In this document: positions 7,530 to 10,130 of the stretch, piece by piece
Layout of the letters: each line of letters starts with the position of its first letter
Position numbering within the stretch: position 1 is the stretch's first letter
IMG/VR virus record: IMGVR_UViG_2874920711_000005
Source: a virus
Taxonomy: Duplodnaviria; Heunggongvirae; Uroviricota; Caudoviricetes
Length of the DNA stretch: 28,069 nucleotides
Strand: one strand, 5' to 3'
Program-made: the position numbers and the translations under genes
The notes under the pieces: model-generated
Database searches by the model: none
What the model saw: only the letters and a program-made list of their open reading frames with translations
What the model was told of the DNA's origin: nothing

Positions 7530-8087
7530 ACTGCCCATAAAAAGCTCTTGCGAATCCAGCTTCCCCCATTCCTCTGACAACAGAATCTGATTTGAAGGAT
7601 AATGAGTAAAATTACCGCTACCCCCAAGGCATTGGATCCTGATGTACTCCTGAAGCATTCTCAATGCTGTCTGGTCGCTGATGATTCCGTCCCGGATACC
7701 GAGAACGTTTCGTCCAGCAACTGGAGAGAGTTCGACGGTGGCATCATTGCCCATGCCGGAGGCGCTGGAGGTTTCGGCTGAGGATGGCACAGGGCATTTT
7801 CCTTTGACGAGCACCCAACCACCATTATCAAGCTTGCGCCGAAGAGCATCATTTTCAGCTTTCGCATTGGCTAACTCCTTCGTGTATTTAGCATCGAGTG
7901 CATCAGCAGCACGCTGGCGCTGCTGCATGTCAGTAATGGTTGCGTTCGCCAGCTTCAGTTCTCTTGCGTTTTTGTCGCGCTGCTCTTTGTAGGTAATGGC
8001 GTTATCACGGTAATGATTAACAGCCCATGACAGGCAGACGATGATGCAGATAACCAGAGCGGAGATAATCGCGGTGACTCTGCTCAT
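7479..8087 (-). CDS. Rz: Rz-like i-spanin; about 48 codons longer than lambda Rz
   Basis: N-terminus [34 protein letters not shown]... closely resembles lambda/DLP12 Rz; follows the endolysin. Confidence 0.8.
7661..7867 (-). CDS. Rz1: Rz1-like o-spanin lipoprotein embedded in the +1 frame of Rz
   Basis: [19 protein letters not shown] lipobox followed by proline-rich [11 protein letters not shown], like lambda Rz1; entirely within Rz. Confidence 0.8.
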
Positions 8088-8502
8088 TGCTGCCCCACAA
8101 ACAGACTTCACGCTCAATCTCACGACGGGTCATCAGCCCTTTCCATTGCTTACCGCCAGCATATGTCCAGCGACGTAGCTGGTCACATGCGCCTTTGATA
8201 TCGCCCTGGTTTATTTTGCGAAGAAGCGTCGATGTTCTGAAATTGCCAGCGCCCACGTTGTAAACGAACGAGTAAAGAGCGCCGCGCGTTGTTTCCGGTA
8301 TATCGACTTTGATGTACGGGTTAATTTGTCTGGCGACAGTGGCAAGGTCTTTATTCAGGAGAGCTTTGCATTCTGCTTCGGTATACGTTTTACCAGGCAT
8401 GATGTCTTTTCCTAGACTGGCCCCTGAATCTCCAGACAACCAGTATCACTTAAATAAGTGATAGTCTTAATACTAGTTTTTAGACTAGTCATTGGAGTAC
8501 AG

Positions 8503-8868
8503 ATGATTGATGTCTTAGGGCCGGAGAAACGCAGACGGCGTACCACACAGGAAAAGATCGCAATTGTTCAGCAGAGCTTTGAACCGGGGATGACGGTCTC
8601 CCTCGTTGCCCGGCAACATGGTGTAGCAGCCAGCCAGTTATTTCTCTGGCGTAAGCAATACCAGGAAGGAAGTCTTACTGCTGTGGCCGCCGGAGAACAG
8701 GTTGTTCCTGCCTCTGAACTTGCTGCCGCCATGAAGCAGATTAAAGAACTCCAGCGCCTGCTCGGCAAGAAAACGATGGAAAATGAACTCCTCAAAGAAG
8801 CCGTTGAATATGGACGGGCAAAAAAGTGGATAGCGCACGCGCCCTTATTGCCCGGGGATGGGGAGTAA
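8503..8868 (+). CDS. insC: IS2 OrfA (InsC) transposase DNA-binding subunit
   Basis: [56 protein letters not shown]... Confidence 0.9.
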
Positions 8869-9731
8869 GCTTAGTCAGCCGTTGTCTCCGGGTGTCGCGT
8901 GCGCAGTTGCACGTCATTCTCAGACGAACCGATGACTGGATGGATGGCCGCCGCAGTCGTCACACTGATGATACGGATGTGCTTCTCCGTATACACCATG
9001 TTATCGGAGAGCTGCCCACGTATGGTTATCGTCGGGTATGGGCGCTGCTTCGCAGACAGGCAGAACTTGATGGTATGCCTGCGATCAATGCCAAACGTGT
9101 TTACCGGATCATGCGCCAGAATGCGCTGTTGCTTGAGCGAAAACCTGCTGTACCGCCATCGAAACGGGCACATACAGGCAGAGTGGCCGTGAAAGAAAGC
9201 AATCAGCGATGGTGCTCTGACGGGTTCGAGTTCTGCTGTGATAACGGAGAGAGACTGCGTGTCACGTTCGCGCTGGACTGCTGTGATCGTGAGGCACTGC
9301 ACTGGGCGGTGACTACCGGCGGCTTCAACAGTGAAACAGTACAGGACGTCATGCTGGGAGCGGTGGAACGCCGCTTCGGCAACGATCTTCCGTCGTCTCC
9401 AGTGGAGTGGCTGACGGATAATGGTTCATGCTACCGGGCTAATGAAACACGCCAGTTCGCCCGGATGTTGGGACTTGAACCGAAGAACACGGCGGTGCGG
9501 AGTCCGGAGAGTAACGGAATAGCAGAGAGCTTCGTGAAAACGATAAAGCGTGACTACATCAGTATCATGCCCAAACCAGACGGGTTAACGGCAGCAAAGA
9601 ACCTTGCAGAGGCGTTCGAGCATTATAACGAATGGCATCCGCATAGTGCGCTGGGTTATCGCTCGCCACGGGAATATCTGCGGCAGCGGGCTTGTAATGG
9701 GTTAAGTGATAACAGATGTCTGGAAATATAG
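8826..9731 (+). CDS. insD: IS2 OrfB (InsD) transposase catalytic subunit, overlapping OrfA in the -1 frame
   Basis: 301-aa ORF with the IS3-family DDE region; overlap arrangement typical of programmed frameshift. Confidence 0.9.
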
Positions 9732-9914
9732 GGGCAAATCCATTTCCGGTGTGTCCGTGACATACAGTCCATACACCAATGATATCTTTGTATGGTATGT
9801 AGCTGACACCTTCCAGACCATCGTTACCACCTGGGCCAGTGATTAACACAGATGCTATAGCAACAGCCCCGCCACCAATAGCAACTGCAACAGCCTTGCG
9901 TAATGATGGCGACA

Positions 9915-10130
9915 TTATTCACCTCTCGCAGCCTTACGCTTATCTTCTCTTATTTTGAAATACAGATTCGTCAGATAAGTCAGAAGCCCCAGAAGCAGAC
10001 TTCCCAGCACACCAATCGCAGCCCACTGTGATGGACTGACCTGATCCAACCACTGCAAAAACCAGTAGCCGGCACTGCCGGCGGAGGTGCCGTAGGCAAT
10101 GCCTGTTGATATTTTTTCCATCTGATACAT
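9915..10130 (-). CDS. Class II pinholin (phage 21 S21 / EssD-like) with dual start MYQ-MEK
   Basis: [68 protein letters not shown]; stop overlaps endolysin start (TAATG). Confidence 0.85.

Follow-up and report, generated by a model that had tools for sequence, protein, structure and literature searches.

The stretch of DNA analysed here, 28,069 nucleotides from a Caudoviricetes record (IMG/VR record IMGVR_UViG_2874920711_000005; hereafter the window), carries a lambdoid lysis cassette in which the gene for an endolysin of the R21/RrrD type, predicted to carry a signal-anchor-release (SAR) segment, is split by a complete copy of the insertion sequence (IS) IS2. The best overall explanation is almost certainly an ordinary IS2 insertion, which added one more pseudogene to a decaying prophage remnant. 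An earlier sequence-only reading of the window had already proposed that IS2 splits the endolysin gene and is flanked by a duplication of its target TTTCC, and the boundaries of the element, its 5-bp direct repeats and the empty site in a close relative all bear this out. The element and its insertion site comprise the following features:

8413..9742, plus strand: complete IS2 (IS3 family), 1330 bp as given, canonical length 1331 bp
8413..8453, plus strand: left inverted repeat of IS2 (IRL), from the repeat arms and alignment, layout according to PMC3299598
9702..9742, plus strand: right inverted repeat of IS2 (IRR), on the holin side, bearing the outward -35 for Pjunc and fusion promoters (PMC9330008, PMC3299598)
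8408..8412, no strand: left copy of the target-site duplication TTTCC, direct repeat
9743..9747, no strand: right copy of the target-site duplication TTTCC, direct repeat, present as a single copy in the empty site of the relative
8503..8868, plus strand: IS2 orfA, 121 amino acids, HTH_Tnp_1 domain (Pfam PF01527, E=1.8e-19)
8826..9731, plus strand: IS2 orfB, 301 amino acids, DDE integrase core (Pfam rve, rve_3 and HTH_21)

The left terminus of the element is TAGACTGG and the right terminus is GGGGCAAATCCA, which closes with GCAAATCCA, and the inverted repeats end in the ...CA-3' that is typical of IS2. The terminal inverted repeats are imperfect, with 77% complementarity over 39 nt (8415-8453 versus 9702-9740); the described repeat lengths are 42 bp for IRL and 41 bp for IRR, and in the same published layout the OrfA operator TAAATAA and the PIRL promoter region are located just inside IRL (PMC3299598). 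The slippery site A AAA AAG (8820-8826) lies where orfA overlaps orfB, and a -1 shift there gives a reconstructed OrfAB fusion of 409 amino acids. With respect to transposition by way of minicircles and Pjunc, the copy has the sequence features. The element is identical in 1330 of 1331 positions (99.9%) to numerous copies that bear the RefSeq label "IS3-like element IS2 family transposase", and the sole difference is a run of four instead of five C in IRL, in which the missing C is probably an assembly error. The best matches include copies in E. coli of the enteroinvasive (EIEC) type, among them strain FDAARGOS_944, which is consistent with the IS2 variant of Shigella and EIEC, as these two are known to have an IS2 subpopulation of their own in common (PMC7373316). 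A second copy of the same IS2 variant is flanked by a 5-bp duplication of its own, GTAAT.

The two parts of the interrupted gene are the following:

9743..9915, minus strand: 5' part of the SAR endolysin gene, comprising codons 1-57 and 2 further nt, encoding the SAR domain as well as E35, D44 and T50 (from the translations)
8084..8412, minus strand: 3' part of the SAR endolysin gene, comprising codons 58-165; the frame as given extends to 8017

IS2 breaks the gene between codons 57 and 58, downstream of both the SAR segment and the catalytic residues E35, D44 and T50, and the 5' fragment reads 59 codons into IS2 to form a hybrid open reading frame (ORF) of 116 amino acids (9565-9915). When IS2 and one TTTCC copy (8413-9747) are deleted from the sequence, the halves rejoin in a single continuous minus-strand frame from the ATG at 9915, precisely as the sequence-only reading had expected of such a reconstruction. 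The rejoined product matches the Pfam family Phage_lysozyme (PF00959, E=1.4e-45) and contains the GH24 triad Glu-8aa-Asp-5aa-Thr as E35, D44 and T50, the catalytic positions of R21. Residues ~8-27 form a Gly/Ala-rich segment that aligns with the SAR segment of R21 as well as that of RrrD; the region shows three conservative changes (A10V, I18V, S29G), and the alignment predicts that the N-terminus acts as a SAR segment. The intact allele of 165 amino acids aligns end to end with RrrD (PDB 4ZPU, E=6e-108) and R21 (PDB 3HDE, E=4e-107) and is ~95% identical to both, with ~8 differences, so that the earlier assignment to R21/RrrD-type SAR endolysins and the placement of the break after the SAR domain hold. 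R21 is one of the two prototype SAR endolysins, its SAR behaviour has been described, and S21 is the prototype pinholin (PMC6116005). An uninterrupted, expressible endolysin ORF is absent from the window, and the gene is here a pseudogene of the R21/RrrD family. Because 108 of the 165 residues are cut off from the export signal and the catalytic residues, the muralytic function is predicted to be lost, in agreement with the earlier reading. The latter had also given the span of IS2 correctly, but its lower bound for the whole feature, 8017, is only the end of a frameshift-extended ORF: the stop codon of the intact allele corresponds to window 8084-8086 and overlaps the ATG of the Rz gene at 8085-8087.

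The uninterrupted state of the site is preserved in the prophage of E. coli FDAARGOS_944 (NZ_CP065613.1, here L002), which is 99.6% identical to window 1055-27998 when the two segments consisting only of IS sequence, 8413-9742 and 18860-20011, are left out. L002 is free of IS2 at the corresponding position and has TTTCC once, and the two BLAST blocks flanking IS2 overlap by exactly these 5 bp (L002 10360-10364). Its rrrD gene is intact with 165 codons (L002 10035-10532) and is followed by a gene for an Rz protein of 156 amino acids. Across window 6836-12485 there is not a single substitution between the two prophages. The insertion appears to be recent, since IS2 has no substitutions compared to other copies and both gene halves have none compared to the intact allele.

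Besides the endolysin gene, the lysis cassette, which is located on the minus strand (7479-10130), encodes a holin, Rz and the embedded Rz1:

9915..10130, minus strand: intact class II holin of the pinholin type (phage 21 S), 71 amino acids (Pfam PF04971 Phage_holin_2_1, E=1.5e-35)
7618..8087, minus strand: Rz i-spanin (Pfam PF03245, E=2.2e-28), 156 amino acids in the intact relative L002
7661..7867, minus strand: Rz1 o-spanin lipoprotein, 68 amino acids, intact (Pfam PF06085, E=3.8e-21), lipobox ...VVGC

The holin gene has no substitutions compared to the FDAARGOS_944 allele and lies directly upstream of the endolysin gene, with overlapping stop and start codons. The Rz gene as given has lost its stop codon and runs to 7479, giving 202 amino acids, because the run at 7621-7625 is one C short. 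Rz1 is encoded within the Rz gene but in a different frame, and together with an Rz-family i-spanin with an N-terminal transmembrane domain it makes up a two-component spanin pair. A gene for a membrane protein with a DedA/VTT domain (7026-7529, plus strand) is located between Rz and the terminase region.

The prophage around this cassette is a remnant, which is unable to build particles whatever the state of its endolysin gene. The window is an exact substring of GenBank entry CP026824.1, and the prophage occupies a site between ybhA (window 27149 onward) and pgl. At its start the window contains one further element:

1..1054, plus strand: IS630-type element, cut by the window edge (Pfam DDE_3 and HTH domains)

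Homology to L002 begins at window 1055, inside the gene for a head "cement" protein, and on the source chromosome IS630 joins this cement gene to codons ~6-193 of ipaHb, which is followed by pgl, ybhD and ybhH (L009 13676-15381). The remaining part of ipaHb lacks the C-terminal E3-ligase portion. Compared to the FDAARGOS_944 prophage, ~18 kb are thus absent by an IS630-bounded deletion, comprising the genes for the major capsid, neck, tail tube, chaperone, tape-measure-like transglycosylase, baseplate, spike and fibre proteins as well as the rest of ipaHb; because capsid, tail, baseplate and fibre genes are deleted, no virions can be made. The FDAARGOS_944 relative contains the type III secretion system effector gene ipaHb at the pgl-proximal end (L010 17761-19587), and therefore the window belongs to the ipaH-carrying prophage family of Shigella and EIEC. 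With one IS2 and two IS630 copies in 28 kb, the prophage has undergone at least three IS events. The second IS630 (~18860-20011) is located in the early region, with a TA duplication on its flanks. From the IS2 variant, the IS630 copies and the ipaHb remnant, the source chromosome is likewise predicted to be of the Shigella/EIEC type.

It has to be considered whether IS2 was the primary lesion of a functional prophage, which suffered the IS630 deletion and its other damage only later. A lysis-defective prophage releases no progeny, so that its subsequent decay would be neutral, and IS2 is indeed complete and placed in an otherwise substitution-free cassette. Nevertheless, we regard this order of events as unlikely, since the undiverged IS2 and gene halves favour a late over an early event and since the absence of ~18 kb of morphogenesis genes makes the prophage defective on that alone. 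The sequence-only reading had gone further and assumed that the insertion locks the prophage in a cryptic state, a claim that we do not uphold: the loss of capsid and tail genes suffices for this state, and a lysis defect is no such lock, as losing the endolysin does not block induction and excision and leaves assembly possible as well.

The next alternative concerns the reading frames of the cassette. Compared to L002, the window has 18 indels, 17 of which are single-base deletions in homopolymers, all on the side of the window and none in the relative; 16 of them shorten G/C runs of four or more bases and one shortens an A run. They are located at positions 2573, 6532, 6921, 7075, 7620, 8092, 10136, 10383, 10389, 10562, 11476, 13109, 16143, 20590, 22294, 25215 and 25919. 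Accordingly, the window is depleted of 5- and 6-base G/C runs, and its A/T runs of up to 8 are otherwise unchanged. The apparent frameshifts affect the Q-like DUF1133 gene (at 11476), a Mu-F head protein gene, the DedA gene and the stop codons of endolysin and Rz; the rejoined endolysin as given comprises 187 instead of 165 amino acids, with one C missing from the run at 8093-8096 (opposite L002 10044). The A-run deletion at 25919 falls into the xis-int region, where the window shows a single fused ORF of 411 codons (25780-27012). Since the pattern is one-directional, composition-specific and typical of consensus errors of long reads, the frameshifts, including that in the Q-like DUF1133 gene and the missing base at the left end of IS2, are very probably assembly errors, and we attribute the endolysin of 187 and the Rz of 202 amino acids to homopolymer error and do not regard them as real variants. 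One observation fits the opposite case, that the frameshifts are real mutations and that the endolysin 3' end, the Rz stop and Q are broken as well: CP026836.1 (L006), whose endolysin is intact, shares the shortened C run at the end of Rz, which reflects either inheritance of a real variant or an error that recurs at a C6 run. However, CP026836.1 has none of the other deletions of the window, and its accession number is near that of the window's source. Together with the restriction of 17 of the 18 indels to window-side homopolymer deletions, this makes real mutations an improbable explanation. The statement of the sequence-only reading that the cassette is intact apart from IS2 is therefore correct for the holin and Rz1, and for the 3' ends of endolysin and Rz, as well as for Q, it is correct only if the homopolymer deletions are sequencing errors, as is likely. 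Unless it is polished, an assembly of this kind will inflate the pseudogene counts for the source genome, since false frameshifts then affect the endolysin 3' end, the stop codon of Rz, Q, xis-int and other genes, and this finding is of more practical use than the IS2 insertion itself.

The sequence-only reading had further suggested that an outward-facing promoter of IS2 alters the expression of Rz and Rz1, or, as can be added, of the endolysin 3' fragment. Elements of IS2 and the IS3 family have an outward -35 in IRR, which in the minicircle combines with the left end to give Pjunc, or with a flanking -10 to give fusion promoters (PMC9330008, PMC3299598), and fusion promoters using the -35 of an IS2 end are known to activate neighbouring genes such as ampC, acrEF and neoR (PMC9330008). 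In the window, IRR (ending at 9742) abuts the endolysin 5' fragment and aims at the holin gene in antisense, and thus points away from Rz and Rz1, which lie beyond IRL. Moreover, no hexamer resembling a -10 occurs with a spacing of 16-18 nt in the flank that follows IRR, TTTCCGGTGT, and a scan for the sigma-70 consensus gave no promoter-like site either near IRL (minus strand) or near IRR (plus strand). An outward promoter at IRL is not described in the cited IS2 literature (PMC9330008, PMC3299598). Geometry and sequence thus led us to reject both possibilities, a fusion promoter formed by IRR as well as outward transcription from IRL; a regulatory role of IS2 is highly improbable, and the element is predicted to have no regulatory effect at this position. 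A scan for intrinsic terminators found no terminator-like site inside IS2 on either strand, and late transcription of lambdoid phages is Q-antiterminated and thereby resistant to terminators. For these reasons a strong polar effect of IS2 on Rz and Rz1 is no safe prediction either.

Finally, that a multi-copy IS2 was merely misplaced during assembly of a repeat-rich genome is extremely improbable despite the systematic homopolymer errors and the many IS copies in this genome, since base-exact junctions at both IS2 termini and a perfect 5-bp duplication of a sequence formerly present once are the signature of transposition, and homopolymer under-calling cannot yield insertions of 1.3 kb.

With these alternatives weighed, we return to the ordinary insertion into a decaying remnant. 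A lambdoid prophage lying between ybhA and pgl most probably received an IS2 of the Shigella/EIEC variant by normal copy-out/paste-in transposition, which placed the element at codon 57/58 of its R21/RrrD-type gene and duplicated TTTCC. The first of the two resulting pieces encodes the SAR anchor with E35, D44 and T50, to which IS2 contributes 59 further residues, and the second is a promoterless 3' fragment for residues 58-165. Neither fragment should be able to form the GH24 lysozyme fold, leaving a cassette that presumably lacks a muralytic enzyme and in which the pinholin and the Rz/Rz1 spanin genes persist. Expression of the late operon would then be expected to let the pinholin depolarise and kill the cell, with no murein hydrolase at hand and no lysis, as can be deduced from the S21/R21 pathway (PMC6116005). 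The remnant had already lost, or later went on to lose, ~18 kb to the IS630-bounded deletion, and with the morphogenesis genes gone the loss of the endolysin would have no consequence for phage production. Some points weigh against this explanation. If the homopolymer deletions were real, the cassette and the Q antiterminator would be further frameshifted and the left end of IS2 would be 1 bp short. One genome does not fix whether IS2 or the IS630 deletion came first, and an exact-sequence look-up finds the hybrid ORF in one public assembly only, CP026824.1, and hence the insertion in a single isolate.

Several further genes were noticed in the window. Four transfer RNA (tRNA) genes are located between the Q-like gene and the holin gene (10806-11116, minus strand), namely Gly-TCC, Thr-TGT, Arg-TCT and one with a CAT anticodon, which is assigned to Met by ARAGORN and to Ile in the RefSeq annotation of the relative. 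Rfam matches above the gathering score are the RalA antitoxin small RNA, sok beside a hok gene, and isrK together with a C4 antisense RNA, the latter two upstream of a gene for a Rha-type regulator. The positions of the Rfam matches are:

25493-25671, minus strand: Rfam RNA match
13470-13645, minus strand: Rfam RNA match
20560-20635, plus strand: Rfam RNA match
20660-20747, plus strand: Rfam RNA match

A gene at ~13703-14389 (minus strand) is annotated as epoxyqueuosine reductase QueH in the relative, and this gene and the DedA/VTT gene are two cargo genes that do not look phage-like.

Split rrrD genes of this kind are also found elsewhere. In RefSeq, the E. coli strains 13C1065T, F467 and 2018-01-1CC have an rrrD gene interrupted by IS2 or an IS2-like element in its first third and in the same orientation, and such rrrD halves are labelled "lysozyme RrrD, incomplete". 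In 13C1065T the insertion is 8 bp away from that of the window and has the duplication ATGCC, and insertion points, target duplications and prophages differ among the cases; these insertions are independent events and not the allele of the window. Independent insertions of this kind, from unrelated E. coli strains, are located at L001 4222-5552, L011 ~1850-3176 and L012 ~1913-3233. Among 5426 complete E. coli genomes, 16 have an IS3-family element within or next to rrrD in the orientation seen in the window, and the exact junction of the window is present in none of them, the near matches being other insertion points. The exact right junction also had no match in the species-representative genomes of GTDB, as was to be expected, given that GTDB treats Shigella as part of E. 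coli.

Together with the window, the three RefSeq strains provide at least four independent insertions of the IS2 type in the first third of the gene and in the same orientation, which raises the question whether genes for R21/RrrD-type SAR endolysins are recurrent targets of IS2 under selection. SAR endolysins are exported by the Sec system of the host and are activated by any membrane depolarisation, for which the holin is not needed. A leaky SAR endolysin in a resident prophage would therefore be a standing hazard, and knock-outs would be favoured. We consider selection doubtful and rather improbable, as the simpler alternative is that tolerated insertions pile up in dispensable prophage DNA, and the data fit both. 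If the insertions were indeed selected, recurrent IS2 in rrrD would inform on the cost of carrying SAR endolysins. For annotation, the locus is best described as an IS2-disrupted rrrD-type pseudogene in a remnant that once carried ipaH, and not as a lysis-competent prophage; outside annotation the significance is small.

Compared to known systems, the cassette agrees with S21-R21-Rz21/Rz1 of phage 21 and essD-rrrD-rzpD/rzoD of DLP12 in the gene order and in the overlapping start and stop codons, and it also has in common with them the pinholin-type holin of PF04971, an endolysin with ~95% identity and Rz1 inside Rz. It differs by the endolysin gene split by IS2 and by the DedA/VTT gene after the cassette, and the C-terminal half of Rz is probably of another sequence type than that of lambda and DLP12 Rz. 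The IS2 copy agrees with RefSeq-annotated IS2 copies in 1330 of 1331 nt, and with IS2 as characterised in E. coli, Shigella and EIEC in the 5-bp duplication, the 41/42-bp repeats, orfA and orfB, the A6G window and the TAAATAA operator, and differs only by one C fewer in IRL. The reference chromosomes of Shigella have 229-348 IS copies, IS2 is among the five expanded elements, and gene loss follows from this expansion (PMC7373316). The window is one instance of this IS-driven formation of pseudogenes and deletions in Shigella and EIEC, with no notable difference, and the insertion of IS2 into an rrrD-type gene is an already known kind of event that combines two well-characterised components.

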